Both the position numbers and the translations under genes were made by a program. Below, one piece after another: positions 35,877-62,560 of a stretch of DNA of 64,000 bases (positions are counted from its first letter, which is position 1; each line of letters begins with the position of its first letter). Source of the stretch: Nitrospirota bacterium. Lineage in GTDB: Bacteria; Nitrospirota; Nitrospiria; 2-01-FULL-66-17. The notes under the pieces were generated by a model, which worked only from the letters and a program-made list of their open reading frames with translations, was not told the DNA's origin and ran no database searches. Where the stretch lies: positions 1,753 to 65,752 of the forward strand of contig JACQCD010000121.1 of NCBI GenBank assembly GCA_016201825.1. Reading direction: 5' to 3'.

Positions 35877-36539
35877 GTGTTGTACGAGATCGCGTACCCG
35901 GTGGTGTCGGTGGTGGCCCGCTGGTGTTGCTCTCTGGAGGTCGTGGGGCGCGAGAAGGTCCCGACCGGGGGCGGAGTAATCGTCGCCGCCAACCACGTCA
36001 GCTACCTGGATATTCCCATTGTGGGGTGTGCCCTCGCCAGGCGCGCGGACTTTCTGGCGAAGGCCGAGTTGTTTCGGACCCCGGTCGTCGGCTGGCTCTT
36101 CCGGCGGTTGGGCGGGGTGCCGATTCGGCGAGGGGGGCTTGATCGGGCCGCGCTCGCCGAGGTGCAGCGGCGTCTGGCCCAGGGACGGCTGGTGGTGATG
36201 TACCCCGAGGGCACGCGCAGCCCGGACGAACGGTTGCAGGACGCCAAGCCGGGGATCGGGATGTTGGTCGCGCGCACCGGGGTCCCGGTCGTACCGGCAT
36301 ACGTGGCGGGAACGGGCGAGGCCTGGCCGCCCGGCGCACGGTGGTTGCGTTGCCGGCCGATCACCGTGATCTTCGGCGAGCCGATGACGTGGGGCGGTCC
36401 ACAGGCAGAGTGGGAAGAGAACGACGTGACGAAACGACGATACCAACGAATCAGCGACGAGATCATGTCGAGCATCGCCGCGTTGCAGCGACAGGCGCGC
36501 ACGAGGCGGATTACTCACCCTTCACCGCAGTTGAACTAG
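35877..36539 (+). CDS. plsC: 1-acyl-sn-glycerol-3-phosphate acyltransferase
   Basis: VAANHVSYLDIP (HxxxxD motif) and YPEGTRS. Confidence 0.85.
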   Translation: MLYEIAYPVVSVVARWCCSLEVVGREKVPTGGGVIVAANHVSYLDIPIVGCALARRADFLAKAELFRTPVVGWLFRRLGGVPIRRGGLDRAALAEVQRRLAQGRLVVMYPEGTRSPDERLQDAKPGIGMLVARTGVPVVPAYVAGTGEAWPPGARWLRCRPITVIFGEPMTWGGPQAEWEENDVTKRRYQRISDEIMSSIAALQRQARTRRITHPSPQLN

Positions 36540-36554
36540 AGAGGAACTACGCGC

Positions 36555-38222: not shown

Positions 38223-38264
38223 GGGGCGGAATCCCGTGCGTCGTGGGGTAGGGGGCATTCGCTG

Positions 38265-39149
38265 ATGGCGCGTCGTCCGCTCGTGACGGGATTGCTGCTG
38301 TTCCTCGTGCTCGCGGTGGCCTTCTTCCTCGGGACGTACCTCACCGCGTGGTTTATGGAGCGTCCGCCGTCGGGTTCCGACCAGATCGCCTTGGTCCGTA
38401 TCGAAGGGGTGATTCTCAGCGCCGACGAGCCGGTCGAGCAGCTTCGGACGTTCGCCGAGAATCCGGCGATCAAAGCCATCCTGATTCGGATCGACAGCCC
38501 GGGAGGCGCCGTGGTGCCCTCCCAGGAAATTTACGACGAGGTCAAGAAGATCCGCGCCGAGGGCAAGCAAAAGGTCGTCGTGTCGATGGGGACGGTCGCC
38601 GCGTCCGGAGGGTATTACATCGCGGCCGCGTCGGACAAGATCGTGGCCAACCCCGGAACGCTCACCGGCAGCATCGGCGTTATCATGGAGCTCCCCAACT
38701 TCGAAGGGCTCATGAAGAAAATCGGCGTGGAAGCCACGGTGATCAAGAGCGGGGCGCACAAGGACTTAGTCTCGCCGTTCCGCGCGATGGGCCAGGAGGA
38801 GCGCCAAATCCTCCAGCGGGTGATGGACGACGTGCACGATCAGTTCATTCAAGCGGTTTCCGACGGACGCGGCCTCGAGAAGGCGGCCGTGACCGCGATC
38901 GCCGACGGCCAGGTGTTCACCGGACGGCAAGCGAAGGAGAAGGGCCTGGTCGACGAGATCGGGAGCTTCGAGGACGCGATCAAGCTCACCGGTGAGCTGG
39001 CCGGCATCGTCGGCCGGCCGTCGGTCGTGGAGCCGAAGCGGCCCTTCTCGCTGTCGGAATGGCTCAAGTCGGAATTCCAAGGACAGATCGGGGCCTGGGC
39101 GAACCCCGCGCCGAGCATCCGCCTCAACTACCTCTGGACGTGGGGATAG
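38265..39149 (+). CDS. sppA: signal peptide peptidase SppA (36K type)
   Basis: IALVRIEGVI…IDSPGG…MGTVAASGGYYIA…. Confidence 0.88.
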   Translation: MARRPLVTGLLLFLVLAVAFFLGTYLTAWFMERPPSGSDQIALVRIEGVILSADEPVEQLRTFAENPAIKAILIRIDSPGGAVVPSQEIYDEVKKIRAEGKQKVVVSMGTVAASGGYYIAAASDKIVANPGTLTGSIGVIMELPNFEGLMKKIGVEATVIKSGAHKDLVSPFRAMGQEERQILQRVMDDVHDQFIQAVSDGRGLEKAAVTAIADGQVFTGRQAKEKGLVDEIGSFEDAIKLTGELAGIVGRPSVVEPKRPFSLSEWLKSEFQGQIGAWANPAPSIRLNYLWTWG

Positions 39150-48063: not shown

Positions 48064-48303
48064 ATGGCGAACGTGCAAATCTACACGACCGATTACTGCC
48101 ATTACTGCCGCGTCGCGAAGTCCTTGTTGGATGAGCAGGGCATTCCGTACGAGGAGATCAATATCTCGAAGACGCCGGAGATGCGCGATGTCCTGGTCGA
48201 GAAGACCGGGGAATGGACGGTGCCGCAGATCTTCGTCAACGGCGAGTACATCGGCCAGGACGATGAGCTACGCGAATGGCTTACATCCGGCCGCCTGAAG
48301 TAG
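48064..48303 (+). CDS. grxC: glutaredoxin (GrxC-like, CHYC active site)
   Basis: VQIYTTDYCHYCRVAKSLLD…TVPQIFVNGEYIGQDD. Confidence 0.85.
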   Translation: MANVQIYTTDYCHYCRVAKSLLDEQGIPYEEINISKTPEMRDVLVEKTGEWTVPQIFVNGEYIGQDDELREWLTSGRLK

Positions 48304-48316: not shown

Positions 48317-48994
48317 GTGACGCGCTCCGCCCCGACCGACCCTCCGATCGAAATCGAAACGGCGCCGCAACCGACGGCGAGCGTGATCTGGCTGCACGGG
48401 CTGGGCGCCGACGGCCACGATTTCGAGCCGATCGTGCCGGAGCTGCGGTTGCCGCGCGAGCTGGCCGTGCGGTTCATCTTTCCCCACGCTCCGCACCGCC
48501 CCGTGACGATCAACGGCGGCTCCGTGATGCGCGCGTGGTACGACATCCGCACGGCCGAGTTCGTGCGGCGGGAGGACGAGGCGGGTATCCGCGAGTCCGA
48601 GCAGGTTGTCCGAGCGTTGATCGCCCGTGAGCAGGCGCGCGGGATCCCGTGTCGGCGCATCGTCCTCGCGGGGTTCTCCCAGGGCGGCGCGATCGCGCTG
48701 CACACCGGTGTGCGGTATCCCGAAGGCCTTGCCGGGCTCATGGCGCTTTCAACCTATCTGCCGCTGGCCGACCTGTTCAGCGCCGAGGCGCATCCCGCCA
48801 ACACGGCCGTTCCCGTCTTCATGGCCCATGGCGTCGAAGATCCCCTCATCCCGCTCGAACGCGGCCAGGAGTCCGCCAATCTGCTCAAGCGCGCGGGGGC
48901 CGACGTGGAGTGGCGAACCTATGAGATGGGGCACTCGGTGTGCCTCGATGAAATCGCCGACGTGGCCGCCTGGTTGATCCGCACGCTGCGGTAA
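48317..48994 (+). CDS. alpha/beta-hydrolase carboxylesterase/phospholipase
   Basis: VIWLHGLGADG…LAGFSQGGA (GxSxG)…MAHGVEDPLIP. Confidence 0.82.
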   Translation: MTRSAPTDPPIEIETAPQPTASVIWLHGLGADGHDFEPIVPELRLPRELAVRFIFPHAPHRPVTINGGSVMRAWYDIRTAEFVRREDEAGIRESEQVVRALIAREQARGIPCRRIVLAGFSQGGAIALHTGVRYPEGLAGLMALSTYLPLADLFSAEAHPANTAVPVFMAHGVEDPLIPLERGQESANLLKRAGADVEWRTYEMGHSVCLDEIADVAAWLIRTLR

Positions 48995-49058: not shown

Positions 49059-49190
49059 GGGCCGGTTTGACGGCTGGCCGATCGCGCCATGCTACCGCGA
49101 CGGGATATCAACGGGGCGCGCGAGCGCTCCCGGTGTGTCAGGTCGCGTGTCACCCCGCCGGTTCTCGGCGGGTTTCGCGACGGTGGAGGG

Positions 49191-51575
49191 ATGTCAATCA
49201 TGGCTCGCCATCGGTTGGACGTGGTCATCGCGGGGGCGGGCCCGGCCGGTTTGAGTGCGGCCGGCCACGCCCAGGCCAACGGCGTGTCTTACGTCCTGCT
49301 TGAGAAGACCGACCACCTCGCCGATACCGTCTTTAGCTACCAGAAACGCAAACACGTCATGTCCGAGCCGGGGCTCATCCCGCTTCGGGGGCCGCTGGCG
49401 TTTGAGGCGGGCACGCGTGAGTCCATCCTCGACGGGTGGAACCGGTTCGCGACGCAGGGCCGGTTGAACGTGTGTTACAGCCAACCCGTCACCGGGATCG
49501 TGTCACGCGACGGCGGATTCCTGGTCAACACCCCGACCGATGAGTACGAAGCGGGGAAGGTGATCCTGTCGATCGGCACGCAAGGCAACCCCCGCAAGCT
49601 CGGCGCGCCGGGCGAAGACCTCCCGCACATCACGAGCCGTCTCATCGACCCGGATGCGTTTGCCGATCAGGACATCGTGGTGGTCGGCGGCGGCGACGCG
49701 GCGATCGAGGTCGCCGTGGCGCTGTGCGAAAAGAATCGGGTCAGCATGGTGGTACGAACGCCCGAGTTCATCCGTGTGAAGGAGGCGCTCGAGCGCGAGG
49801 TGCTGGGCCGGGAGCGGGCCGGCCAGATGAAGATTTTTTACAACTCGGCGGTGAAGCGGGTCGAGCCCGGCTCGATCGAGCTCAAGACGCCGGACCGCGA
49901 CGTGGTCGTGCCGGCCGCCCACGTGATTCTCAAGATCGGCACGCAGCCGCCGCGGGCGTTCTTGGAAACCCTCGGGGTGCGGTTCCCCTCGGCGGATCGC
50001 GAAGCCCAGCCCGTCCTCAATCAGTATTACGAGTCGAGCGTGCCGGGGTTGTTCCTCATCGGCGCCGTCAGCGGGCGGCCGCTGATCAAGCTCGGCATCA
50101 ACCAGGGGTACGAGGTCATCGAGCACCTGTTGGGGCGGCCCGTCGAGCCGGCCGACGAGGACCTGCTCAAGGCCAAGCTGCCGTTCCTCCGCGGAACGGC
50201 GCGGGAGCGCATTCGCCGCGCGGCGAACGGGGTGCCGATCCTGGCCGCCGCGGACGACGAGTCGCTGCGCGAGGTGTTCCTCGCCGCCACCGTGCGGTCC
50301 TGCCGCCACGGCGAGGTGATTTTTCGGCAGAACGACTACACCGACAGCTTCCTCGCGATCCTCGACGGCCCGGTCGACATCTCCGTGGCCGCGGACGACG
50401 GCGCCGCGCGCCGGGTGGCCACGTTGTCGGCGGGGAGCTTCTTCGGCGAAATGAGCCTGATTTCCGGGCGCCGGCGGTCGGCCACGGCCACGTCGGTGGG
50501 CGAGACCCGGCTTCTCGAGATCCCGCGCAAGCCGATGCTCAAATTGGTCTACACCTCGCCCGCGGTGAGCGAGATTCTCAACCGCACGTACCTGATTCGC
50601 GCGTTTCAGAGCTATCTATTTCCTCAGGCGACCGACAACGAGTTGCGCGATCTGGCCATGACGGCGGTGGCACAGAAGCTCGAGAAGAACACGGCGGTGT
50701 TCCGCGAGGGGGAGCCGGGCGACGCGTTCTACCTGATTCGCAGCGGGATGGTGAAGATCGCCAAGGCGTCGGGCGTGAAGGAGCTGGTGTTGGCGTACCT
50801 TCCGGCGGGGCAGTACTTCGGTGAGATGGCGCTGCTCTCGGGCGAGCCGCGCAGCGCGACGGTCACGGCGATTTTCCCCACCGAGCTGATCCGCCTCGGC
50901 AAAGACGACTTCTTGCGGTTCTTGGAGGCCCGCCGCGAGTTGAAGGAGCGGATCGCGCGCGAGGCCGAGCGGCGCCGGTTGGCGACGCTCGAGGCCCAGG
51001 CGGGGACCGAGGGAGGCGGCGTGCTGGGCGAGTTGATCCGCGAGGAGGTCGTGATCGGGACCGACGTCCTTTTGATCGACGAGCATCGGTGTGTACGCTG
51101 CAACAATTGCGTCAAAGCCTGCGAGGGCGTCCACGAGGACGGTCAGGCGCGCCTCTCCCTGACCGGGACCACGTTCTACAACCTCCTGGTCCCGAACTCG
51201 TGCCGCCACTGCGAGAACCCGCTGTGCATGACCGACTGTCCCCCCGACGCGATCGCGCGCGACCCGCGCGGGGAGGTGTACATCAAGAACAACTGCATCG
51301 GGTGCGGCAACTGTGCGAAGAATTGTCCCTACGGCAACATCTTCATGGTCCATCCCAAGGCTCAGCACGGAATCCTGGGCTGGCTCAAGGCCCTCTGGCC
51401 GGGGGCCGGTGAAGAATCGGGACGATCGGTCGCCGTGAAGTGCGACCTGTGCCGGGACATCGCGGGCGGGCCGGCGTGTGTGCGGAGCTGCCCCACCGGC
51501 GCCGCGATCCGGCTCAAGCCCGAGGAATCCCGGCGGCAGATCGAGCGCCTTGTCGCGCGCGGGAGCGGCGCCTGA
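49191..51575 (+). CDS. fusion protein: TrxR-type FAD/NAD(P)H oxidoreductase (no CxxC) + two cyclic-nucleotide-binding domains + 4x[4Fe-4S] ferredoxin module
   Basis: RBS GGAGGG. VVIAGAGPAGLSAA and VVVGGGDAAIEVA. Two cNMP motifs FFGEMSLISGRRRSATA and YFGEMALLSGEPRSATV. Cys clusters CVRCNNCVKAC, CRHCENPLCMTDCP, CIGCGNCAKNCP, CDLCRD…CVRSCP. No signal peptide. Confidence 0.82.
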   Translation: MSIMARHRLDVVIAGAGPAGLSAAGHAQANGVSYVLLEKTDHLADTVFSYQKRKHVMSEPGLIPLRGPLAFEAGTRESILDGWNRFATQGRLNVCYSQPVTGIVSRDGGFLVNTPTDEYEAGKVILSIGTQGNPRKLGAPGEDLPHITSRLIDPDAFADQDIVVVGGGDAAIEVAVALCEKNRVSMVVRTPEFIRVKEALEREVLGRERAGQMKIFYNSAVKRVEPGSIELKTPDRDVVVPAAHVILKIGTQPPRAFLETLGVRFPSADREAQPVLNQYYESSVPGLFLIGAVSGRPLIKLGINQGYEVIEHLLGRPVEPADEDLLKAKLPFLRGTARERIRRAANGVPILAAADDESLREVFLAATVRSCRHGEVIFRQNDYTDSFLAILDGPVDISVAADDGAARRVATLSAGSFFGEMSLISGRRRSATATSVGETRLLEIPRKPMLKLVYTSPAVSEILNRTYLIRAFQSYLFPQATDNELRDLAMTAVAQKLEKNTAVFREGEPGDAFYLIRSGMVKIAKASGVKELVLAYLPAGQYFGEMALLSGEPRSATVTAIFPTELIRLGKDDFLRFLEARRELKERIAREAERRRLATLEAQAGTEGGGVLGELIREEVVIGTDVLLIDEHRCVRCNNCVKACEGVHEDGQARLSLTGTTFYNLLVPNSCRHCENPLCMTDCPPDAIARDPRGEVYIKNNCIGCGNCAKNCPYGNIFMVHPKAQHGILGWLKALWPGAGEESGRSVAVKCDLCRDIAGGPACVRSCPTGAAIRLKPEESRRQIERLVARGSGA

Positions 51576-52408
51576 TGTTGTTGGCCACGCCCCTGAGCGC
51601 GCGGTGGCGCCGCATATCCTGGTGGCTGCTCGTCCTGCTGACGGCGGCGTATGTGTGGGCCGCCTATCCGGACGCCGCGCACGGAGGATCCCGAGTCGGC
51701 ATCGCGTACGGGATCATCGGCTCGGCGCTCATCCTGCTCCTCCTCGCGTTCGGGATTCGCAAGCGGCGGTATCGAAGCCGGCTCGGCCGCGTCGAATCGT
51801 GGCTGCAGTCCCACGTCTACCTCGGCCTCCTCGTGGTGGTCGTCATTCTGCTGCACTCCGGCTTTCGCTTCCACGACCTGATCGCCGTGACGGCGTTCGC
51901 GCTTCTGGGCGTGGTCGTGGCGAGCGGCGTGGTCGGCGCCGTCGCGTACACGCTCGTGCCGGCGTGGCTGACCGAGGCCGAGAGCAACCTCACGCCGCAG
52001 CAGATCTCCGACCGGCTCAACCAGCTCGCCCAGTCGATGGGACGTCTGGCGTCGGGGAAGTCCGCCCCGTTCCGCGCGACCTGCACGCGCCTGCTCCGCG
52101 CGGAGCGGCCGGGCTGGTTTGCGGGGTGGCGCGTCGTCTGGTCCCGCGGCGCCGGTTCGCCGACGGGCGAGCTGGGCGGCGCGTGGCAGGCGCTTCGCGA
52201 CCAGGTCGGGCTCGAGGAGCGGGGAGATTTTGACGCGCTGCTCGTGCTGTCGCGCCAGCGACAGGACCTGCACCGGCGGTTGATCGCCCGGCAGCGGTAC
52301 AAGAACCTGATCGAGGCGTGGTTATACCTCCACGTCCCGCTGTCCGTTGCGATGCTCGTGGCCATTGCGGCGCACGTCACGGCGTTCTTCTACTACGTGG
52401 CGCCGTAG
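51575..52408 (+). CDS. 5-TM membrane protein with two H-x13-H pairs (candidate di-heme b transmembrane electron carrier)
   Basis: The ATG overlaps the previous stop (TGATG). H80/H94 in TM3 (SHVYLGLLVVVVILLHS, nt 51812 and 51854). H253/H267 in TM5 (LHVPLSVAMLVAIAAHV, nt 52331 and 52373). The Arg-rich loops fit positive-inside topology. Confidence 0.7.
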   Translation: MLLATPLSARWRRISWWLLVLLTAAYVWAAYPDAAHGGSRVGIAYGIIGSALILLLLAFGIRKRRYRSRLGRVESWLQSHVYLGLLVVVVILLHSGFRFHDLIAVTAFALLGVVVASGVVGAVAYTLVPAWLTEAESNLTPQQISDRLNQLAQSMGRLASGKSAPFRATCTRLLRAERPGWFAGWRVVWSRGAGSPTGELGGAWQALRDQVGLEERGDFDALLVLSRQRQDLHRRLIARQRYKNLIEAWLYLHVPLSVAMLVAIAAHVTAFFYYVAP

Positions 52409-52416
52409 GGTCCGAC

Positions 52417-54084
52417 GTGGCCTATCGCCTCATCAGACACGCCGACGGCCGGATCGAAACCACCGAGGTGGCGGGACCGGCGCTACGGATCGGCCGAGGC
52501 ACCAATGCCGACCTGCGGTTCGACGACACGGCGGTGGCGCTCGAACACGCCCGCATCGAACAGACCGACGGCGGGTTCCTGCTGACCGATCTGGGCGGCG
52601 TCACGGGCTGCTACGTCAACGGATCACGGGTCACGTCGACGCGCTTGGCCGGAGGGGACCGAATCGAGATCGGTCCGTTTCTGATCGACGTCACGCTGCC
52701 CCGAGGACCGGGCGAGTCGGTGGCGCTCGATGTCCGGCCGGTGGCCGGGGCGAGGGCGGCGCGCGGGGCGATCGATGCCAAGCCGATCGATTATGCCAAG
52801 GCCTACGCGCTCAACCGATGGTTTGCGAACAAGCCCCTCTTGACGCTGGTCGCGACGGCGGGGCTCGGCGCGTTGTTGAGCGGGATTCTGTGGGCGGGGA
52901 AGACCGAACTGTTCCGACCGGGCTCGGTCACGGTCGCCCATGCGCTTTTCACCAATCAGTGCGAGCGCTGCCACACGGCGTGGACCGGCGTCTCCGAGAA
53001 GGCGTGCCGGGGCTGCCACGTCCCGGCGGTCCACCACGACGACCAGGCCGATGCCCCGTCGTGTCTGGCCTGCCACGCCGAGCATCGCGGCCAAGCGGCG
53101 CTGGCCGGCGTGGCGACGCGAGACTGCGTCGCCTGCCACCGCCAGCTCCAGACCAAGGATCATTCGCCGCTTTCGTTCGCGGATCGGACCACCGACTTCG
53201 CGACCGATCATCCCGAGTTCGCGATCACCCGGGTCGTCAATGGGAAGAAGGAGCGCGTGCGATTGGACGTGCCCGGCGCGCGTCGCGCCGACGCCGCTTC
53301 GATCAAGCTCAATCACAAGGTCCATCTCAAGCCGGCTCTCAAAGGGCCCAAGGGCCCCGTCCAACTCGCGTGCCGCGACTGCCATCTTCCGGCCGAGGAC
53401 GGCGCGCGCATGGCGCCGGTGACGTACCAGGAGCGGTGCAAGGGATGCCATGAGCTGGGGTTCGACCCCCGCTTTCCAGACCGCGTCGTCCCGCACGTGC
53501 CCCCGGCCGACGTGCGCGCGTACCTCGTGGCGGAGTATACCGAGAACGCGGGCGCTTTAGTGTCGAAAGGCGGGGGGGCGGATCGGCTCGCGGGGCCGCG
53601 GTTTCCGGGGCCCGCGCGCTCGCCGTCGCTGGAGTGGGTGATGGAGCAGGTCGCCGTCGACGAGCGCCACCTGTACACCTCCGCGTGCCCCGAGTGCCAT
53701 GCGGTGCGCGCGGACGCGCGGCCGGTTCCCGAGATTGAGCCGACGCGGGTCCCCTCGTCGTGGCTGTCGCACGCGCGGTTCGCGCACCGCTCGCACGCCC
53801 AGTTGGAGTGCGGCGCCTGCCACGAAAACGTGGAGAAGAGCGCCGACACGAGCGACGTCCTGCTCCCGGGGATCGAGATCTGCCGCCGGTGCCACCGCGC
53901 GGCCGATCCGACGCCGAGGCTGCAGGCAGATCGGGCGAGCATCGACTGCGTCGCGTGTCATCGCTACCACGACGGGCCGGCCAAACCGGGGCCTGAGGGC
54001 TCGTTCACCATCCGGCGTTTGCTGGACGGAGTGGACCCCGGACGACGGGAACCGCGTCCCATGTCCGAAGGGCCTCAGACATGA
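52417..54084 (+). CDS. FHA domain - TM helix - decaheme c-type cytochrome
   Basis: GTG at 52417. FHA-like LRIGRGTNADLRFDD…HARIE…FLLTDLGG…YVNGSRV…GDRIEIG. TM LLTLVATAGLGALLSGILWAG. Ten CXXCH motifs (CERCH, CRGCH, CLACH, CVACH, CRDCH, CKGCH, CPECH, CGACH, CRRCH, CVACH). Confidence 0.82.
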   Translation: MAYRLIRHADGRIETTEVAGPALRIGRGTNADLRFDDTAVALEHARIEQTDGGFLLTDLGGVTGCYVNGSRVTSTRLAGGDRIEIGPFLIDVTLPRGPGESVALDVRPVAGARAARGAIDAKPIDYAKAYALNRWFANKPLLTLVATAGLGALLSGILWAGKTELFRPGSVTVAHALFTNQCERCHTAWTGVSEKACRGCHVPAVHHDDQADAPSCLACHAEHRGQAALAGVATRDCVACHRQLQTKDHSPLSFADRTTDFATDHPEFAITRVVNGKKERVRLDVPGARRADAASIKLNHKVHLKPALKGPKGPVQLACRDCHLPAEDGARMAPVTYQERCKGCHELGFDPRFPDRVVPHVPPADVRAYLVAEYTENAGALVSKGGGADRLAGPRFPGPARSPSLEWVMEQVAVDERHLYTSACPECHAVRADARPVPEIEPTRVPSSWLSHARFAHRSHAQLECGACHENVEKSADTSDVLLPGIEICRRCHRAADPTPRLQADRASIDCVACHRYHDGPAKPGPEGSFTIRRLLDGVDPGRREPRPMSEGPQT

Positions 54085-55619
54085 AACACTCGCCGCGAAC
54101 GTCAACCGGGAACGTGTCCGCTCTCGCGCGGATGGGGTTGCTTGCGGCGCTGGCGTTCGTCGCCGGCTGCGGCGGCGGGACGAGTGTTGATCAGAGCCTG
54201 ATCTGCGACGGGTCCGGCGCGCCGCTGTCGGCCGCCGAGGTCTCGGGCATCGTGACAAACGCCGCCTCGGCAATCGACGCGCCCGCCATGACGGTCGCCG
54301 TCGTGGACCGGAACGGGAACGTCCTCGCCGTGTATCGGCAGCCGGGCGCTTCGGCCGCGAACGACGACCTGGCCGTGTCGCTCGCGCGCACCGCCGCGTT
54401 CTTCAGCAACAACCAGGCGCCGCTCTCCTCCCGCACCGTGCGATTCATCAGCGGGATCCACTTCCCGCCGGGGATCAGCTTCACCCCTCCCGCCGCGCTG
54501 TACGGGATCGAGAATACCAATCGCGGCTGCGAACTGAACGTCACGTTCAACCCCGGCAAGGCGGTGCCGCCGGCCAAGTCGGTGGCCGGCGGGTCCTGCA
54601 ACAGCACCGACCGCAGCGGGTGCGGACGGGGGATCACGACGGGCAAGGCCGATCTCGCCGACAGCGACCCCGCGGCGGTGAACCCCGGCGGCGTGCCGCT
54701 GTTCCGCGGGTGCACGGTGGTGGGCGGCGTCGGCGTGGCCGGCGCGCCCGGCGCCCACGCCGAGTTCGCCGCGCTCGCGGGGGCCTCGGCGTTCCCGCCG
54801 AGTATCGCGCCACCCGGCATCGTGGTGATCGACGGCGTGCGCCTGCCGTTTGTCGAGCAGACCACCCAGCCGTCGGGCACGACCGCCGGGAGCGCGGCGG
54901 GCGCGTTCGTCGTCGGGCCGGTGGCCGGCGCCGGCGTCCCGGAGGGGTATCTGGCGGGGCCCGTCGCGGGGTCGCGGTTGTCGGCGGCCGAGGTGGATCG
55001 GATCGTCCAACAATCGGTCCAGACCGCCGACCGCACGCGGGCTGCAATCCGCCTCCCGATCGGCCTGCGCACGCGGATGGCGATCGCCGTCGGCGACGTG
55101 GACGGAACGATCCTCGCGCTGTACCGGATGCCAGACAGCACGGTGTTTTCCATCGATGTGGCCGTGGCCAAGGCGCGTAACGTCGTCTACTTCAGCGGGC
55201 CCGATCCCAATGCGGCGGCCGACCTCCCGGGCGTGCCCGCGGGCACGGCCGTCACCAACCGGACGATCAGCTTTGGCAGCCAACCCTTGTTCCCTCCGGG
55301 TATCGACGGCGGCAGCGGTGTCGGCCCGTTCTTCAGTCTGTTTCAGAACGATACGGCTGCGGCGTGCTCGCAGGGGAGCCAGGCGGTGAACGCCAACCAG
55401 AGCGGGATCGTCTTCTTCCCCGGGAGCCTGCCGCTGTACGCGAACGGCATCCTCGCCGGCGGCTTGGGGATCAGCGGCGACGGCGTGGAGCAGGACGACT
55501 ACGTGTCCGCGGGGGGCGCGACGGGCTTCGAATCCCCGGAAGGCATTCGAGCCGACGGCGTCTCGATCCGGGGCGTGCGCCTGCCGTTTCTGAAGTTCCC
55601 TCGGAACCCGGAGGGGTGA
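54081..55619 (+). CDS. lipoprotein with two GlcG/HbpS-like (DUF336, heme-binding/'heme-degrading') domains
   Basis: Lipobox LAFVAGC. Both halves show LSAAEV…(I/A)VAVVD/AIAVGDVDG…LAVYR/LALYRM…A(R/K)(T/A)…FFS/YFS and GG(V/L)PL(F/Y)…GG(V/L)G(V/I)(A/S)G. The ATG overlaps the previous stop. Confidence 0.7.
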   Translation: MKHSPRTSTGNVSALARMGLLAALAFVAGCGGGTSVDQSLICDGSGAPLSAAEVSGIVTNAASAIDAPAMTVAVVDRNGNVLAVYRQPGASAANDDLAVSLARTAAFFSNNQAPLSSRTVRFISGIHFPPGISFTPPAALYGIENTNRGCELNVTFNPGKAVPPAKSVAGGSCNSTDRSGCGRGITTGKADLADSDPAAVNPGGVPLFRGCTVVGGVGVAGAPGAHAEFAALAGASAFPPSIAPPGIVVIDGVRLPFVEQTTQPSGTTAGSAAGAFVVGPVAGAGVPEGYLAGPVAGSRLSAAEVDRIVQQSVQTADRTRAAIRLPIGLRTRMAIAVGDVDGTILALYRMPDSTVFSIDVAVAKARNVVYFSGPDPNAAADLPGVPAGTAVTNRTISFGSQPLFPPGIDGGSGVGPFFSLFQNDTAAACSQGSQAVNANQSGIVFFPGSLPLYANGILAGGLGISGDGVEQDDYVSAGGATGFESPEGIRADGVSIRGVRLPFLKFPRNPEG

Positions 55620-57367
55620 TGCGCGCGACGCGTCGGTGGTCCGGGGTCTTGATGGTTGGCGCATTCGTGGGACTCCTCGGCCTCGTCCCGGGGCCCGACT
55701 CAGCGGGGGCCGCCGAGGGCGACGAGGGAGAAGAGCGGCTGCCGCGACGGCCGCTCGCGCCCGTCACCGAGCCGCGCGAGCCCCTGCTCCCGCAAGAGAT
55801 GCCGGACGGCCGAGGCTTCGTGCCGCTTCCCGACCGGTGGACGATCGCGCCGCCGCCGTACGAGCTGAACGTGAAGGGGCATTGGTGGGATCCGTACAAC
55901 CAGAACCTTCTCAAGGGCGATCGGCCGATGTGGGGTCAGGACACGTTCCTCAACCTGACGCTGGCGTCGGAGACCCTCGCGGAGTACCGCGCCGTGCCGA
56001 CGCCCGGCGGCGTGAGCGCCGAGCGCGCGGGGAGCGCGGCGTTGTTTGGCGCGCGCGAGCAGGGGGCGTTCAGTCAGAACCTGATCGTGTCGGCCGACCT
56101 GTTCAAGGGCGACACGGCGTTTCGGCCGTTCGACTGGCGGGTCAAGGGCACCGTGATCGCCAACCTGAATTTCTTCGACGTCCGGGAACGGGGGATCGTC
56201 AACGTCGACGTGCGCGAGGGCGTGAACCGCCGGGATGGATTCTTTGCGCTGCAAGAGTTCTTTGTCGAGGCCAAGTACAAGGACCGCAGCCCCAACTACG
56301 ATTTCGTGTCGGTCCGGGCCGGCCTCCAGCCGTTTTCGAGCGACTTCCGGGGTTTCGTGTTCACGGACACGAACCTGGGCGTGCGCCTCTTCGGCAACGC
56401 CGAGTCCAACCGCGACCAGTATAACCTCGCGTTCTTCGACCAGCGAGAGAAAGAGACTAATAGCGGCTTGAACCGCTTCGAGCGTCGCGGCCAAGAGGTG
56501 TTCGTGGGCAACGTCTACCGCCAGGACTTCCTGGTGCCGGGCTATACCGCGCAGGTGAGCGCGCACTACCTGCTCGACGAGGAGAGCCTGCACTTCGACG
56601 AGAACGGCTTTCTGGCCCGGCCGGACGCCGTCGGTGTGTTCAAACCCCACGAGATCCGGGCCGCGTACTACGGGTGGGCGGGATCAGGGCACGCGGGGCG
56701 CGTCAACGTCGAGCACGCCGCGTACTACGTCGTGGGCGAGGACCGGCGCAACCCGATCGCCGGGCGCGAGGTCGATATCCGAGCCGGGATGGCGGCGCTG
56801 GAAGTGTCGTACGATCACGACTGGTTCCGGCCCAAGGTCTCATACTTCTACGCCTCCGGCGACGGCAACCCGACCGACGATACCGCTCGGGGGTTCGACG
56901 CGATCTTCGACAACCCGGCGTTCGCGGGCGGACCGTTCAGCTTTTGGAACCGACTTGGCCTCCGCCTGGCGGGCACCGGCGTGGCGCTGGTCAACCGCGG
57001 GAGCGTGCTGCCCGACCTTCGCAGCAGCAAGGAGGAAGGGCAGCCCAACTTCGTCAACCCCGGCATTCATCTCGTCAGCGCGGGTGTCGATGTGGATGTC
57101 ACGCCGAAACTCAAAGGCGTCCTCAACGCCAACTACCTGCGGTTCGACCAGACCGAGGCGCTCGAGTTCCTGCTCTTTCAGGCACCGATCCACAAGGACA
57201 TCGGGTGGGACCTCGGCGCCGGCTTGCGGTATCGGCCGTTGTTGAGCAATAACATCGTGATCCTCGCCGGCGTCGCGGCGTTCATTCCCGGCGAAGGATT
57301 CAAGGACATCTACGAATCGGGCCGCGTGTTGCAGATGGCGTTCACCACGGCGACGCTGGTGTTCTAG
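55619..57367 (+). CDS. outer-membrane beta-barrel (porin-like) protein
   Basis: Signal peptide GVLMVGAFVGLLGLVPGPDSAGA. Alternating beta-strand pattern with many aromatic girdle residues. The C-terminus …TTATLVF ends in Phe. The ATG overlaps the previous stop (TGATG). Confidence 0.72.
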   Translation: MRATRRWSGVLMVGAFVGLLGLVPGPDSAGAAEGDEGEERLPRRPLAPVTEPREPLLPQEMPDGRGFVPLPDRWTIAPPPYELNVKGHWWDPYNQNLLKGDRPMWGQDTFLNLTLASETLAEYRAVPTPGGVSAERAGSAALFGAREQGAFSQNLIVSADLFKGDTAFRPFDWRVKGTVIANLNFFDVRERGIVNVDVREGVNRRDGFFALQEFFVEAKYKDRSPNYDFVSVRAGLQPFSSDFRGFVFTDTNLGVRLFGNAESNRDQYNLAFFDQREKETNSGLNRFERRGQEVFVGNVYRQDFLVPGYTAQVSAHYLLDEESLHFDENGFLARPDAVGVFKPHEIRAAYYGWAGSGHAGRVNVEHAAYYVVGEDRRNPIAGREVDIRAGMAALEVSYDHDWFRPKVSYFYASGDGNPTDDTARGFDAIFDNPAFAGGPFSFWNRLGLRLAGTGVALVNRGSVLPDLRSSKEEGQPNFVNPGIHLVSAGVDVDVTPKLKGVLNANYLRFDQTEALEFLLFQAPIHKDIGWDLGAGLRYRPLLSNNIVILAGVAAFIPGEGFKDIYESGRVLQMAFTTATLVF

Positions 57368-57388
57368 CGCGCAGCCTCGGAGGATCGG

Positions 57389-60300
57389 ATGCGTGACGGT
57401 GACATGAAGACGCGATCGTGGCGGCCGACCTTGACGATCGTCCTGGTCCTCGCCCTGACCGCGGTGGGAGCGTCCCGTTTGTTCTCCGGGGAGCCCTCGA
57501 AAGACCTTCCCGACCTTCACCGGCAACCGGAGACGCTGGCCGACGAGAAGAGCGAGGGGTGTCGGGGATGCCACGAGGGGATCGAGCCGATGCACGCGTC
57601 CCCCGCCGTGAAGCTCGCCTGCGTCGACTGCCACGGCGGAAACGGCGACGCCAAGATCGCGACCGGCGTGGAGCGCGGCTCCGACGAGTACGAGGGCGTC
57701 AAGCGGCAGGCGCACGTTGCGCCCCGGTTCCCCGCGCGGTGGGCGGGGCCTGACGGGCGCTACCGCGCGGCCAACCCCGAGGGCAGCTACACGCTGCTGT
57801 TGGACGAGTCGCCCGAATTCGTGCGCTTCGTCAACCCGGGGGATCTTCGTGTGGCCGTGGAGACGTGTGGGCGCTGTCACGACGACGAGGTCGCGGCCGT
57901 CCGGCGGAGCACGATGACGACGTCGGCGATCTTCTGGGGCGCCGCGGGATACGCGAACGGGATCGTGTCGCCCAAGCGCTCGATCTTCGGCGAGGGCTAC
58001 GGTCGCGACGGCACGCCGCAACTGATCCGTCCCGCCGCGCCGCCCACCGCGGAGGAGAAGCGCAAGGGCGCGTTGCCGTTCCTGGTGCCGCTGCCTCGCT
58101 GGGAGATCATCCAGCCCGGCGATAACTTCCGGGCCTTCGAGGACGGCGGTCTGCTGCAACCGTCGGCCTTCCCCGAGATCGGCAATCCCAACCCACTCGA
58201 CGAACCCGGCAAGCCCGACATCCGCTTGAGCAGTCGCGGCCTCGGCACAGGCCTGCGGGTGAGCATCCCGGTCCTCAACATCCACAAGACGCGGCTGAAC
58301 GACCCGCACCTCTCGTTCCTCGGGACCAACGACCACCCGGGGGACTACCGCTCCAGCGGCTGTACCGCGTGCCACGTCGTCTACGCCAACGACCGCGACC
58401 CTGCGCACTCGGGGCCCTATGCCGAGTTCGGCCACCTGGGCCGCAGCGCGACCGACGACCCCACGATCTCCAAGAACGAATCGGGCCACCCCATCCGCCA
58501 CCGACTCACCCGCGCCGTGCCGTCCAGCCAGTGCATGACCTGCCACATGCACCAGCCGAACTCGTTTATCAATACGTATTACGGGTATAACCTGTGGGAC
58601 TACGAGACCGACGGCGGGTTCCTGTGGCCCGCGAAGCAGCAGTACCCCACCGAAGCCGATCGGCGCCTGATCCTCGACTCCAACCCCGACGGCGCGTCGG
58701 TGCGCGGGCTCTGGTCGGACCCCGCCTTCCTCGCGCGGGTGAGCGAGCTCAATCCCAAGCTGCAGCAGACCCAGTTCGCGGACTACCACGGACACGGCTG
58801 GATCTTCCGCGCCGTGTACAAGCGAGACCGCAAGGGCAATTTGTTGGACGCGGAGGACAAGCCGGTCGCGTTCGAGGACCCCAAGCGCTTCGAGAAGGCG
58901 GTTCACCTCGCGGACATTCATATGGAGAAGGGCATGCACTGCGTGGACTGCCACTTCACGGTGGACAGCCACGGCAACGGTACGCTCTACGGCGAGTACG
59001 GTCACGCCATCGAGATCGCCTGTGAGGATTGTCATGGCACGACCAGGGTGCGGGCCACGCTCCGGACGTCGGGCCCAGCGTCGCCCGCGGGCGGCACCGA
59101 TCTGCTCATCAAGACCACGCCGTTCGGCCGCCCGCAGTTCGCGTGGCGCGAGGGCAAGCTGTTCCAGCGCTCGATGCTGAAGCGGGATCTGGAGTGGGAG
59201 GTTGTCCAGGTGCTCGACTCGATCACGCCGGGCAACGCCCACTACAGCGAGAAGTCCCGCCTGGCGAAGACGATCCAGCGGGACGGAAAAACGTGGGGCC
59301 GCGGCGACGTCGACGACGCGTCGCTCGCCCACTCCAACCAGAAGATGACGTGCTACGCGTGTCATTCGTCGTGGATGACGTCATGTTTTGGCTGCCACCT
59401 GCCGCAGCAGGCGAACCAAAAATCCGACAAGCACCACTTCGAGAGCGGCACGACCCGGCAGTACAGCTCGTACGACATGCAGGTGGTGCGGGACGACGTC
59501 TTCATGCTCGGGATCAACGGGACGGTGGAAGGGCACAAGGTCGCGCCCGTCCGGTCGTCCAGCGCCGTGATGCTCAGCTCGACCAACCTGAACCGGCAGC
59601 GGTTCTACATCCAGCAGCCCACGATCTCCGCTCCGGGATTCAACGGCCAGGCGTTCAACCCCCACGTGCCGCACACCGTGCGCGCGCGCGAAACCAAAGG
59701 GTGCGCCGACTGCCACGTCTCCGCGCAGAACGACAACAATGCGTGGATGGCGCAACTCCTCCTGCTGGGGACCAAGTTCGTCAACTTCATGGGCCGCTTC
59801 GCGTGGGTCGCGGAAGGGGAGGCGGGCCTCGAAGCCGTCGGGGTCACCGAGTGGGAGGAGCCGCAGGCCGTGCTCGGGAGTTTTCTGCACCGCCTGGCCT
59901 ACCCTGACGCGTGGGCCGACCACCAAAAGCGCCGCCTCGAATTATCCGAAGCCCACCACCACGAGGGGGGCGGGGAGGCTCGGAGCCTGGTCAAGCGCGG
60001 GGAGTACCTCTATGCTGCGCTCGGACCCAAGGGCTTCGAGGTCTTCGACGTCGCGAACGTGGACAACAAGGACGCCTCCGAACGGATCGTGACGGCTCCG
60101 GTGTCGCCGCTCGGCCAGCGCACGTACGTCCGCACCTCGTATGCGACGGCCGTGGCGCTGCCGACGAACATGCCGATCGCGCCCTACCGAAAAGGGCTCC
60201 CGGAGAACGAGGAACAGGCGTGGCACCCGCTCTACCACTACGCCTACGTGACCGATCGCGACGAGGGGCTGATCGTCGTCAACGTGGACACGTTGGCCGA

Positions 60301-61156
60301 CCGGGACCCCACGAACAACTTCCTCGAGCGCGCCGCCACGTTCAACCCCGACGGTGAACTGAACGGCGCCCGCAACCTGGCGATCGCGGGGCGGTACGTG
60401 TACGTGGCCTGCGAGCGGGGCTTGGCCGTGGTGGACATCGATGATCCGCTGCACCCGCGCATCGCCGCGCGGCTGCACGACGTCGCTCGGCCCACGTCGG
60501 TGGCGATCCAGTTCCGGTACGCGTTCATGACCGACGCCGAGGGACTCACGGTGGCGGACGTCACCGACCCCCGCGCGCCGCGGGTGGTCGCGCGCCTGCC
60601 GATCGCCGAGGCCAAGAGCGTCTACGTGTCGCGCACCTACGCCTACGTGGCGGCCGGCCGGACGGGCCTGGTGATCGTCGACGTCGAGCGGCCCGATCGG
60701 CCGCGGATCGACCAGGTCTACACGGCCGACGGGCGGATCGCCGACGCGCGCGACGTGAAGGTCGCCTCGACGAACGCGAGCCTGTTCGCGTACGTCGCCG
60801 ACGGTGCGGGTGGACTCAAGGTCATCCAGCTCACGTCGCCCGAGACCATGCCGGGGTATCTCGGGTTCAGCCCGCGGCCGGAGCCGCGGTTGATCGCCAC
60901 GCGCCGCACGCACGGCCCGGCGCTCGCCGTGGCCGAAGGGCTGGACCGCGACCGCGCCGTGGACGAGAGCGGCCATCAAATCGCCGTGTTCAACCGGATC
61001 GGGGCGCGGCCGTTCCGGTCGGACGAGATGCAGCGCTTGTATCTGAAGGATGGCCGTCTGTACCAGGTCGAGAATACGCCGCCCGCGGCGCCCCAGGAAC
61101 CGCCGAAGGCGGACCGCAAGGGGCGGGCGGGATTGCCAACAAGGGGCGAACGATGA
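57389..61156 (+). CDS. 1255-aa secreted decaheme c-type cytochrome fused to a C-terminal LVIVD-repeat beta-propeller
   Basis: RBS GGAGGA. Signal TLTIVLVLALTAVGA. Ten CXXCH motifs between nt ~57560 and ~59716. Six LVIVD-like repeats at nt ~60000-60845 (GFEVFDVA, GLIVVNVD, GLAVVDID, GLTVADVT, GLVIVDVE, GLKVIQLT). Confidence 0.82.
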   Translation: MRDGDMKTRSWRPTLTIVLVLALTAVGASRLFSGEPSKDLPDLHRQPETLADEKSEGCRGCHEGIEPMHASPAVKLACVDCHGGNGDAKIATGVERGSDEYEGVKRQAHVAPRFPARWAGPDGRYRAANPEGSYTLLLDESPEFVRFVNPGDLRVAVETCGRCHDDEVAAVRRSTMTTSAIFWGAAGYANGIVSPKRSIFGEGYGRDGTPQLIRPAAPPTAEEKRKGALPFLVPLPRWEIIQPGDNFRAFEDGGLLQPSAFPEIGNPNPLDEPGKPDIRLSSRGLGTGLRVSIPVLNIHKTRLNDPHLSFLGTNDHPGDYRSSGCTACHVVYANDRDPAHSGPYAEFGHLGRSATDDPTISKNESGHPIRHRLTRAVPSSQCMTCHMHQPNSFINTYYGYNLWDYETDGGFLWPAKQQYPTEADRRLILDSNPDGASVRGLWSDPAFLARVSELNPKLQQTQFADYHGHGWIFRAVYKRDRKGNLLDAEDKPVAFEDPKRFEKAVHLADIHMEKGMHCVDCHFTVDSHGNGTLYGEYGHAIEIACEDCHGTTRVRATLRTSGPASPAGGTDLLIKTTPFGRPQFAWREGKLFQRSMLKRDLEWEVVQVLDSITPGNAHYSEKSRLAKTIQRDGKTWGRGDVDDASLAHSNQKMTCYACHSSWMTSCFGCHLPQQANQKSDKHHFESGTTRQYSSYDMQVVRDDVFMLGINGTVEGHKVAPVRSSSAVMLSSTNLNRQRFYIQQPTISAPGFNGQAFNPHVPHTVRARETKGCADCHVSAQNDNNAWMAQLLLLGTKFVNFMGRFAWVAEGEAGLEAVGVTEWEEPQAVLGSFLHRLAYPDAWADHQKRRLELSEAHHHEGGGEARSLVKRGEYLYAALGPKGFEVFDVANVDNKDASERIVTAPVSPLGQRTYVRTSYATAVALPTNMPIAPYRKGLPENEEQAWHPLYHYAYVTDRDEGLIVVNVDTLADRDPTNNFLERAATFNPDGELNGARNLAIAGRYVYVACERGLAVVDIDDPLHPRIAARLHDVARPTSVAIQFRYAFMTDAEGLTVADVTDPRAPRVVARLPIAEAKSVYVSRTYAYVAAGRTGLVIVDVERPDRPRIDQVYTADGRIADARDVKVASTNASLFAYVADGAGGLKVIQLTSPETMPGYLGFSPRPEPRLIATRRTHGPALAVAEGLDRDRAVDESGHQIAVFNRIGARPFRSDEMQRLYLKDGRLYQVENTPPAAPQEPPKADRKGRAGLPTRGER

Positions 61157-62523
61157 TGCACAACAGACGAGTCAGGTGGGGGGTGGCGGCGATGGTCGCA
61201 TGCGCGGCGGCGCTGGCGTCTATGGGTCTCGGTCCCGCTCGGGCCGCGGACAATCCGGCGCCGAGCGCCAACGAGAAGCCGCGCCCCGGCCAATACCTGG
61301 GCGCGCCCTCGTGCGCGTCCAGCCACTGCCACGGAAGCGCGCAGCCGCGAACGGCGTACGACGTGCGGCAGAACGAGTACCTCATCTGGCTCAAGCAGGA
61401 CAAGCACACCAAGACCTACAGCGTCCTCTCGAACGCCCTTTCGAAGCGCATCGCCAAGAACATGAAATTGAAGCGGCCGCCGCAAGAGGAGGCGCGGTGC
61501 CTGGACTGTCACGGCCTTGCCGTGGCCGAGGAGCTTCAGGCTCGCCCCGTGGACCTCGCCGACGGGATCTCGTGCGAGGGCTGCCACGGACCGGCCGGAG
61601 GATGGCTGGCGGGGCACACCGAGGAGGGATGGACGCACCAGCGCTCGGTCGAGGCCGGCATGACCGATTTGCGCGATCTCGTGACGCGGACGGAGGTGTG
61701 CTTGGGGTGTCACCTCGGCAAGACCGGCACCGGGGTGGACCACGAGCTGCTCGCGGCCGGCCATCCTGATCTCGTATTCGAGTTGGTCAACTTCAGCGCA
61801 GCGATGCCGGCGCACTGGACGCCGGTGTCCCGGAAGAAAGCCCGCGCGGACCGCCCCGATCGCAACACCGCGCGCGCATGGGCGGTGGGGCAGGTGGTGC
61901 AGTTCCGCGAATCGATGCACCTGACCGCGCGCCGCGCCCAGTCGGGCCGGTGGCCGGACTTCGCCGAGATGGAGTGCACCTCCTGCCACCACGCGCTCAA
62001 CGGCGGCAAGGAGCGGCAGCTCCGGGGGTATTCGCTGGCGGCCGGGCTTCCGGGTACCAGCCCCGCGCGCGTCGCCGTCTTCCGCCACGTGCTCGACACG
62101 TTCTCGCCGGACGACCGCGGTCCGCTGCTCGTGAGCGTGGACCGACTTGCGGCCTCGATCTCGCGCCTGTTTACGCCGCACGAGACGGTGGCGGTCCAGG
62201 CGAACGTGCTCGGGGACGAGACGCGCGGGGTGTTGGACCGGGTCGGGTCCACGGAGATCGACGACGCCTTGACCCGCGTGATGCTGCTGCGGGTGGCCGG
62301 CGACGGAGTCTTTTTGAACAGAGCCGACTTGAGGTCGGCGAAGCAGGTGGCGCTGGCGATCAACGCGCTGGCCGGCGCGCTGGCCGAACACGATCCCAAG
62401 TGGGCCCGCCCGGAGGTCGCGAAGACGATCGACGCGCTGTACGACGACGTCTCCGGCAAAGGTGACTATGACCCACAACGGTTCGTCAAGCACCTCGCGG
62501 CGTTTCGGCGATCGGTGAAGTGA
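61153..62523 (+). CDS. secreted multiheme cytochrome (c554-like N-terminal half, helical C-terminal half)
   Basis: Signal AAMVACAAALASMGLGPARA. CLDCH, CEGCH, CLGCH, CTSCH plus an atypical SCASSHCH (CX4CH) where family members normally carry the first CXXCH. The ATG overlaps the previous stop. Confidence 0.75.
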   Translation: MMHNRRVRWGVAAMVACAAALASMGLGPARAADNPAPSANEKPRPGQYLGAPSCASSHCHGSAQPRTAYDVRQNEYLIWLKQDKHTKTYSVLSNALSKRIAKNMKLKRPPQEEARCLDCHGLAVAEELQARPVDLADGISCEGCHGPAGGWLAGHTEEGWTHQRSVEAGMTDLRDLVTRTEVCLGCHLGKTGTGVDHELLAAGHPDLVFELVNFSAAMPAHWTPVSRKKARADRPDRNTARAWAVGQVVQFRESMHLTARRAQSGRWPDFAEMECTSCHHALNGGKERQLRGYSLAAGLPGTSPARVAVFRHVLDTFSPDDRGPLLVSVDRLAASISRLFTPHETVAVQANVLGDETRGVLDRVGSTEIDDALTRVMLLRVAGDGVFLNRADLRSAKQVALAINALAGALAEHDPKWARPEVAKTIDALYDDVSGKGDYDPQRFVKHLAAFRRSVK

Positions 62524-62560
62524 CGAGGTCGGGGGAACAGGGTTCGTGCGTTGCGGTGCC

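Follow-up and report, generated by a model that had tools for sequence, protein, structure and literature searches.

What would a bacterium do with one protein that carries a flavin module, two cyclic nucleotide monophosphate (cNMP)-binding domains and four [4Fe-4S] clusters on a single chain? The question is raised by a gene, here called A, on contig JACQCD010000121.1 of a Nitrospirota bacterium; it occupies positions 49191-51575 on the forward strand of the window (the whole stretch of 64,000 nucleotides that was analysed, to which all coordinates refer) and encodes 794 residues. Gene A heads a strictly syntenic, translationally coupled and uncharacterised operon, and the reading put forward here, to which as a whole chain we give about an even chance, is that this operon takes electrons from NAD(P)H and exports them across the cell envelope, with cyclic AMP (cAMP) as the gate. 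An earlier, sequence-only reading of A had drawn its functional picture without the operon, which turned out to be the main clue to function.

The open reading frame (ORF) of A extends over 49089-51575. A start at 49191 yields 794 residues, one at 49200 yields 791; the latter lies about 10 nucleotides behind the Shine-Dalgarno sequence GGTGGAGGG, is the better placed of the two, and is the start of an identical NCBI protein of 791 residues (P0001, from a metagenome-assembled genome (MAG) labelled "Nitrospirae bacterium"), which is named "cyclic nucleotide-binding domain-containing protein". Pfam recognises Pyr_redox_3 at residues 12-291 (E 2e-37), two cNMP_binding domains, and Fer4_11, Fer4_7 and related 4Fe-4S dicluster families at residues 627-771, in agreement with NCBIfam and with the conservation described below; the four-part architecture proposed from the letters alone is thus borne out by the domain search, and every motif quoted for it (AGAGPAG, GGGDAA, the cNMP cores and the cysteine clusters) is present. 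Of the 19 cysteines of the protein, 16 make up four cluster motifs within residues 634-767; there remain C95, C179 and C371, none of which belongs to a CxxC or is conserved in an alignment of 30 homologues at 56-64% identity. A hydropathy scan found neither a signal peptide nor a membrane helix in A, and the protein is predicted to be cytoplasmic, as had been claimed.

Among 5.8 billion proteins searched for homologues, more than 1,300 clusters are related to A, the top 120 of which are all full length at 56-64% identity, and an exhaustive HMMER search gave 1,185 representatives with E below 1e-30. When each GTDB species was represented by a single genome, 369 of these genomes proved to encode a relative; the best 80 are mostly MAGs of Thermoanaerobaculia and other Acidobacteriota, with one of Ca. 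Troglogloeales and one of Syntrophobacteraceae. The full architecture is kept down to 31% identity, and named members come also from MAGs of Nitrospira, Alphaproteobacteria and Pseudomonadales; all relatives whose names were seen belong to uncultured organisms and bear generic names only. Around this common form the modules are occasionally shuffled: P0252 has the order flavin, Fer4, two cNMP domains, Fer4; P0327 and P0336 combine two cNMP domains with Fer4 and have no flavin module; P0362 joins Fer4 to flavin without cNMP domains; and P0268 (1134 residues) carries, in one lineage, two canonical FHA domains fused N-terminally to the flavo-cNMP-FeS protein (FeS, iron-sulphur). All of this marks A as a real, widely conserved and old gene. 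The idea that its frame is an artefact of assembly or frameshift joining separate genes was rejected, because the same uninterrupted architecture recurs in the clusters from independent assemblies, in hundreds of species genomes and at distant identities, and we give it next to no probability.

The flavin module (residues 8-335, window 49212-50195, forward strand) is YpdA- and thioredoxin reductase (TrxR)-like, with two dinucleotide-binding domains, for flavin adenine dinucleotide (FAD) and for NAD(P)H, as assigned by Pyr_redox_3 and by PDB and Foldseek matches; it has no redox cysteine. Its AGAGPAG motif spans residues 14-20 and its GGGDAA motif residues 166-171. The closest PDB match is the YpdA/Bdr structure 7a7b (E 1e-17 by sequence), and Foldseek also places YpdA on top (E 2e-23); the thioredoxin reductases come next, and after them the TrxR-type ferredoxin-NADP reductases (FNRs) at E 1e-8 to 6e-5 (3ab1, at E 1e-8, 6gar and 3lzw). 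The sequence-only reading had called the module a TrxR-type FNR for its want of a redox CxxC. That absence holds, and the TrxR fold without a redox disulfide, by which such FNRs are told from disulfide reductases, is indeed found; the label itself is imprecise, since the module is closest to YpdA/Bdr and not to an FNR. FNRs stack an aromatic residue of their C-terminal extension on FAD; in A the position of the C-terminal sub-domain is taken by the linker to the cNMP-binding domains. Membership of the other two families fails. In the alignment with 7a7b, Ala19 of AGAGPAG stands in the place of the YpdA Cys14 (GGGPCG), and the YpdA profile TIGR04018 gives 155 bits against a cut-off of 340; the thioredoxin reductase profile TIGR01292 gives 63.6 bits against 343, CxxC motifs are confined to the FeS module, and no cysteine of the flavin module is conserved among the 30 homologues. 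The module is best described, at the level of sequence, as an NAD(P)H flavoprotein of the TrxR superfamily without thiol chemistry, standing outside the YpdA, TrxR and FNR families. An invariant arginine, R189, stands immediately behind the second Rossmann strand; relatives that use NADPH have one at this place too, which suggests NADPH as the favoured substrate.

These relationships indicate what the module could do. With YpdA/Bdr (7a7b, 7a76) and the low-molecular-mass thioredoxin reductases it shares the FAD- and NAD(P)H-binding pair of dinucleotide-binding domains, and with YpdA also the lack of a CxxC; unlike YpdA, it has alanine for Cys14 and is fused to cNMP and FeS modules, so that its likely partner is an FeS chain and not a disulfide. 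The closest functional analogy for a step from FAD to FeS is provided by the TrxR-type FNRs (B. subtilis YumC 3lzw, C. tepidum 3ab1 and B. cereus 6gar), in which a TrxR fold without a disulfide exchanges single electrons between NAD(P)H and FeS; they differ in that their FeS partner is a free ferredoxin, whereas that of A is fused, and their similarity to A is weaker than that of YpdA or TrxR.

At its C-terminal end, A carries a four-cluster [4Fe-4S] ferredoxin module of the type found in HycB, HydN and the N-terminus of AegA (residues ~625-780, window 51063-51530, forward strand; Fer4_11, Fer4_7 and an HycB3 match). Its cysteines form the clusters C634/637/640/644, C671/674/679/683, C702/705/708/712 and C751/754/763/767, on a pattern of the CxxCxxCxxxC(P) type, and all 16 are invariant in the 30 homologues; Fer4_11 scores 39.7 bits against a threshold of 26.2. 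HycB3 of the hydrogen-dependent CO2 reductase (7qv7) matches residues 627-782 at E 9e-23, and among NCBIfam profiles AegA reaches 73 bits and HydN 66 bits, all below the equivalog cut-offs. The module had been taken for a DmsB/NrfC-like one in an unusual, cytoplasmic setting. This does not stand: the equivalog scores are far too low (NrfC 48 against 378 bits, DmsB 46 against 214), the module is internal and not preceded by a signal peptide, and, since the closest relatives (HycB3, HydN and the AegA N-terminus) are all cytoplasmic, the location is no anomaly. What A shares with HycB, HydN, the AegA N-terminus, FdnH, DmsB and NrfC alike is the 4x[4Fe-4S] wire with 16 cysteines in four motifs. 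In AegA and YgfT such a module is also fused to an NAD(P)H flavoprotein; in A, unlike AegA, it lies C-terminal to the flavoprotein with two cNMP domains in between, and the flavoprotein is YpdA-like and not GltD-like.

Between these two redox modules lies the tandem of cNMP-binding domains, CNB-A and CNB-B (residues ~350-600, window 50238-50990, forward strand). PF00027 scores 146.9 bits against a gathering score of 27.5, its two matching stretches taking in positions 2-88 of the 89 in the profile, and both domains align as a single tandem with the regulatory subunits RI and RII of protein kinase A (PKA) and with Plasmodium protein kinase G (PKG). The phosphate-binding cassettes, FFGEMSLISGRRRSATA at residues 417-433 and YFGEMALLSGEPRSATV at residues 542-558, are canonical in this alignment, with G419-E420...R429-S-A-T in the first and G544-E545...R554-S-A-T in the second; invariant in the 30 homologues are G419, E420, R427-R429 and A431-T432-A433, and G544, E545, R554, A556 and T557. 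The claim of two cNMP cores is thereby upheld. The same alignment had been proposed as a way to tell cAMP from cyclic GMP (cGMP) binding, and this part fails: RSAT and RTAT cassettes occur in binders of both. Like the PKA regulatory subunits and PKG, A has two consecutive domains with cassettes of the form FGE...R(S/T/A)AT; unlike them, it has its tandem attached to a redox enzyme, where it does not regulate a kinase, and it has no inhibitor or pseudosubstrate segment. A bacterial precedent for an enzyme-fused cNMP domain with allosteric control is the mycobacterial cAMP-regulated acetyltransferase Pat (NF058543), whose cNMP-binding domain matches A at 74 bits; Pat differs in having one such domain with a GNAT catalytic domain, and no redox cofactors. 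Control by a cyclic nucleotide of the electron flow from NAD(P)H to FeS in A, as the sequence-only reading proposed, is a reasonable reading of this arrangement.

Where the electrons would go is suggested by the genes that follow. Six of them, B to G, lie downstream of A on the same strand, with the junctions TGATG (A/B), ATGA (C/D), GTGATG (D/E) and ATGATG (F/G); the gap between E and F is 21 nucleotides and contains GGAGGA. The overlapping start and stop codons and the E/F spacing suggest translational coupling. The proteins of the window were compared by tblastn with 85 fetched loci (L001-L085) that extend over 10-kb flanks. B follows directly after A in 83 of the 85, the other two being cut off ahead of the place of B, and 78 contain C. 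D is found in 57, E in 56 and F in 53; for these three genes most of the other loci are too short to tell. The order A-B-C-D-E-F is identical wherever the flank allows, and G is seen in the five loci whose flank reaches far enough. In two loci the A-B pair is kept where C to F are absent or interrupted: in L071 unrelated genes lie downstream of B, and in L081 (Ca. Troglogloeales, a Nitrospirota MAG) an IS110 transposase at 9353-10264 of the locus lies about 1.2 kb downstream of B, with C to F not found in the remaining sequence. The individual domain families of the operon are known; their combination and the operon itself are uncharacterised, and full-text literature searches returned no description of either the fusion in A or the A-F operon.

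Gene B (51575-52408, forward strand) encodes a membrane protein of 277 residues with five helices, a putative di-haem b carrier judging from alignments, an AlphaFold2 model and sub-threshold Pfam matches. Four histidines are invariant in an alignment of 32 homologues as well as in one of 40 (~50% identity): H80 and H94 on one helix, and H253 and H267 on another, each pair with the spacing H-x13-H. The model (mean predicted local distance difference test score, pLDDT, 81) shows five membrane helices and a helical domain of ~110 residues between helices 4 and 5; with positive-inside signals in RWRR at the N-terminus and RKRRYRSR after helix 2, H80 and H253 are predicted to lie near the cytoplasmic face and H94 and H267 near the periplasmic one. 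This is the geometry of a transmembrane di-haem cytochrome b, with one haem near each face, and B probably binds haem in this way. Weak matches recur through the B family to Ni_hydr_CYTB (35 of 40 members), Ferric_reduct (32 of 40) and DUF4405 (20 of 40), which share one Pfam clan of two-haem cytochromes; the best family-wide E-values to cytochrome b families are 1e-5 and 8e-6. The two histidine pairs on two membrane helices that mark two-haem cytochromes b are thus found in B, a significant profile or fold match is not, and B would be a divergent or new cytochrome b-like family. The same course, from cytoplasmic NAD(P)H through flavin and two histidine-ligated haems b to an acceptor across the membrane, is taken by NOX, FRE, FRO and MsrQ-type systems, whose ferric-reductase domains share the H-x13-H spacing with B. 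Unlike in NOX and FRE, the parts are different proteins in A-B, with an FeS wire between flavin and haems; B has five helices, no significant fold match and only sub-threshold similarity to Ferric_reduct, and multihaem cytochromes lie downstream.

The remaining genes of the operon, all on the forward strand, supply c-type haem in quantity: C has ten CxxCH sites, F ten, and G four to five. Gene C (52417-54084, in a frame open from 52318) combines an N-terminal FHA domain, one membrane helix and the ten CxxCH motifs (Pfam FHA, Cytochrome_C7 and CIII, with a motif count). Its FHA domain (52417-52800) matches Pfam FHA at E 1.5e-14, but departs from the canonical phosphothreonine-binding form throughout the family, with AVALEHA for SVSRxHA and GS-x-TGTYVNG for S-x-NGTFVNG; it may be a phospho-independent docking module. 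Pfam finds no match in C to quinol dehydrogenases of the NapC/NirT or CymA kind, and in a PDB sequence search C matches through its FHA domain only. Gene D (54081-55619) encodes a tandem HbpS-like protein of the DUF336/GlcG type (PF03928, in two stretches) with a lipoprotein-type N-terminus. Gene E (55619-57367) encodes 582 residues without cysteine, secreted to judge from its N-terminal hydrophobic segment and ending in ...TLVF; it has no Pfam match and is a probable outer-membrane beta-barrel. Among its homologues a precomputed Alginate_exp match occurs in 2 of the 120 listed and an Ig-like Big_13 domain in many, which ties E to outer-membrane barrels only weakly. Gene F (57389-61156) encodes 1255 residues with ten CxxCH motifs (Cytochrome_C7) and an LVIVD beta-propeller (E 2e-24); neither E nor F has a meaningful match when its sequence is compared with the PDB. 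Gene G (61153-62523) encodes a cytochrome c554-like protein of 456 residues (Pfam Cytochrome_C554), with four CxxCH and one CxxxxCH.

At 59-69% identity, E is better conserved than any other protein of the operon. It belongs to a very large family (7,996 of 8,000 scored candidates at E <= 1e-5), which frequently has an Ig-like Big_13 domain at the N-terminus and is found in MAGs of Methylomirabilota, Binatia, Thermodesulfobacteriota and Nitrospirota. From this spread, D-E-F may be a module that also occurs without A-B.

Taken as a set, C to G resemble the MtrCAB and Geobacter Pcc conduits, in which periplasmic or surface multihaem cytochromes share an operon with an outer-membrane protein; a dedicated entry point on the NAD(P)H side is likewise a feature of the flavin-based Ndh2/EetAB/PplA pathway of Listeria. 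The operon of A differs from these conduits in having no quinol dehydrogenase of the CymA, ImcH or CbcL type, entry being through a soluble flavo-FeS protein and the cytochrome b-like B; in its FHA, HbpS-like and LVIVD components; and in the second-messenger control that it implies.

A source and a sink for the second messenger lie next to the operon on the reverse strand. A class-II cAMP phosphodiesterase of the metallo-beta-lactamase fold (62561-63328; PF02112 PDEase_II, E 4e-12) converges on it, and a CyaB-like class III nucleotidyl cyclase catalytic domain (63325-64000; PF00211, E 2e-23) follows, its stop codon overlapping the start of the phosphodiesterase and its frame still open where it runs off the window end. 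The best PDB match of the cyclase is P. aeruginosa CyaB (3r5g, E 1e-35), with which it shares the lysine of DKFVGD and the DYT motif; Cya2 (2w01), a guanylyl cyclase, has glutamate at this lysine position, which sets substrate choice. The lysine suggests cAMP as the product and is the one pointer to cAMP. Of the 85 related loci, 9 have a cyclase homologue no more than 10 kb from A, several of them directly upstream of it; no phosphodiesterase homologue is found in these loci, but their 10-kb flanks mostly end before its position. The two neighbours in the window and the cyclase genes of the related loci lend the idea of cNMP control some indirect support.

Signalling genes of another kind recur on the upstream side. 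In a survey of the gene immediately upstream of A in 72 loci, it encodes an FHA protein in 44 (in 38 of these, DUF4388/PatA_N with FHA; for example at 9080-9994 of L002), a Ser/Thr kinase with TPR repeats in six, a GAF protein in four and a cyclase in two. The upstream DUF4388-FHA proteins keep SVS-x-x-HA and S-R-NGTFVNG, and with them all phosphothreonine-binding residues, and the FHA fusion in P0268 is a Rosetta-stone link between FHA signalling and this enzyme. The window itself has no FHA gene at this place; upstream of A are an Abhydrolase_2 carboxylesterase (48317-48994, forward strand), immediately adjacent, and, two genes upstream, a glutaredoxin of 79 residues with a CHYC active site (48064-48303, forward strand). 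Since this pairing did not recur upstream of A in other loci, both are probably unrelated to the operon.

From these components the following chain may be proposed. The YpdA/TrxR-like FAD module of A would oxidise NAD(P)H, and, because it has no redox cysteine, the flavin would release single electrons to the four [4Fe-4S] clusters of A itself, a step comparable to that between a TrxR-type FNR and ferredoxin and to that in AegA-type fusions. The FeS wire would reduce the haem of B on the cytoplasmic side, whence electrons would cross the membrane to the haem on the periplasmic side, pass to the periplasmic decahaem domain of C, and travel by way of D, E, F and G until they reach an acceptor in the periplasm or at the cell surface. 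The cNMP tandem lies between the FAD and FeS modules; if cAMP is its ligand, binding would reposition both and switch the transfer from FAD to FeS on or off; the CyaB-like cyclase nearby would supply the cAMP and the class-II phosphodiesterase would break it down. FHA and Ser/Thr-kinase partners would form a second layer of control. Export of electrons from NAD(P)H that bypasses the quinones dissipates membrane potential, and this would explain why the path is tightly gated. That operons of this kind form a class of quinone-free export systems, defined by a flavo-FeS protein, a new di-haem b protein and a multihaem path, with a cAMP-switched step from flavin to FeS and a second, FHA- and phosphothreonine-based gate, is a bolder proposal, which we consider possible but on balance doubtful. 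To our knowledge, and in the literature searched, it would be the first case of direct cyclic-nucleotide control of an electron-transfer enzyme.

Of this chain, the sequences themselves show the domain architecture, the conserved cofactor and ligand motifs, the gene order and the translational coupling; binding of haem by B, outward flow, cAMP as the ligand and the gating of the FAD-to-FeS step are inferred from them. Several points weigh against the chain. In the AlphaFold2 model of A the pLDDT, on average 67, falls below 45 over residues 601-794, across the whole FeS module, so that neither the distance from FAD to FeS nor the docking surface can be judged from it. B has no match among solved folds (the best Foldseek hits in the PDB, at E 0.39, are unrelated helical bundles), all its matches to cytochrome b families in Pfam are below the gathering scores, and it may carry a quinone site. 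On the side of control, cassettes with RSAT or RTAT fit cGMP as well as cAMP, most of the 85 related loci have no cyclase within 10 kb, and the cyclase and phosphodiesterase of the window are convergent neighbours outside the operon.

The possibility of a quinone site leads to a different placement of the same parts. If B were a cytochrome b of the FdnI or HyaC type acting on menaquinone, A-B would be a regulated NAD(P)H:quinone oxidoreductase, or work in reverse, and C to G would be fed separately from the quinol pool. The frequency of weak matches to Ni_hydr_CYTB, whose di-haem cytochromes b react with quinone, is in keeping with this, as is the combination of a four-cluster FeS protein with a di-haem b, which recalls FdnH-FdnI and HybA-HybB. 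Yet the matches of B are sub-threshold, and those to Ferric_reduct, a non-quinone family, are almost as frequent; C has a single helix and no Pfam match of the NapC/NirT or CymA kind; and the strict adjacency and coupling of A, B and C fit a direct relay, which leaves the quinone-linked arrangement rather improbable. A reversal of the whole chain is less probable still: multihaem cytochromes would take electrons from an extracellular or periplasmic donor, such as Fe(II), reduced humic substances or a partner cell, and pass them through B, FeS and FAD to NAD(P)+. All the cofactors are reversible in principle, and some MAGs that encode relatives of A bear the labels Nitrospirae, Nitrospira or Ca. 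Troglogloeales, taxa with lithotrophic members; but by established bioenergetics such an inward movement should oppose the membrane potential, most of these donors are far more positive than NAD(P)+, and Pfam finds no energy-coupling subunit in the operon. Outward flow by direct relay from A to B to C is the reading retained here.

Two further readings concern A itself. With its two cNMP domains, FHA proteins, kinases, and GAF and cyclase genes, the neighbourhood is rich in signalling, and A could be mainly a sensor, whose FAD and FeS report the NAD(P)H/NAD(P)+ ratio or O2 and which, together with the cyclic nucleotide, tunes how active the cytochrome complex is, or its assembly, through contacts with the FHA partners. 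We regard this, too, as unlikely: a four-cluster chain with 16 invariant cysteines is wire-like, as in HycB and HydN, and atypical of sensors; Pfam finds no output domain in A (helix-turn-helix, kinase or GGDEF); and coupling to a membrane protein with four invariant histidines fits the delivery of electrons. Very improbable, finally, is that A reduces disulfides in the manner of TrxR or YpdA/Bdr, with regulatory and FeS modules added on. Its N-terminal part does find its best sequence and structure matches in YpdA/Bdr and TrxR, and a glutaredoxin gene (48064-48303) lies two genes upstream; but there is no CxxC, the YpdA Cys14 is replaced by alanine, the profile scores are 155 against 340 (YpdA) and 64 against 343 (TrxR), and the glutaredoxin is not among the upstream neighbours in other loci. 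The thiol reductase was rejected for want of a conserved cysteine in the flavin module. The one-electron path from FAD into the FeS wire of A remains the preferred course.

Some features of the surrounding sequence may be recorded beside this. The stop codon of G and that of the phosphodiesterase gene on the opposite strand are 37 nucleotides apart (62523-62561), a gap that may hold a shared bidirectional terminator. Very long antisense ORFs run opposite real genes, for example at 54191-55171 and 56840-59365 on the reverse strand, the latter an 841-residue frame opposite F; they have no family matches and are by-products of the high G+C content, although a simple gene-picking procedure based on G+C at third codon positions favoured an antisense ORF over gene D. 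Further upstream, 29753-39149 on the forward strand encodes a chorismate mutase/prephenate dehydratase, an aminotransferase, DAHP synthase, prephenate dehydrogenase and EPSP synthase, together with cytidylate kinase, an acyltransferase, ribosomal protein S1 and an S49 peptidase, a housekeeping block that places the operon in an ordinary chromosomal context. The G+C content is 0.55-0.59 at 6001-10000, 16001-22000 and 28001-30000, and 0.63-0.71 elsewhere; the low stretches may be islands or genes of different composition.

If the proposed chain is right, a module that passes electrons from NAD(P)H to cytochromes under the switch of a ligand would be useful for bioelectronic engineering, and B, whose family at present bears the name "hypothetical protein", would gain a role as a new transmembrane cytochrome b. 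Bacteria would then gate an electron-transfer chain post-translationally by a second messenger, beyond the control of transcription by CRP-type regulators. For the abundant uncultured soil and sediment bacteria that carry the operon, among them Thermoanaerobaculia, other Acidobacteriota and organisms known from MAGs labelled Nitrospirae or Nitrospira, it would be a new route by which to dump cytoplasmic reducing power on periplasmic or extracellular acceptors, with a bearing on the cycling of iron, manganese and humic substances.

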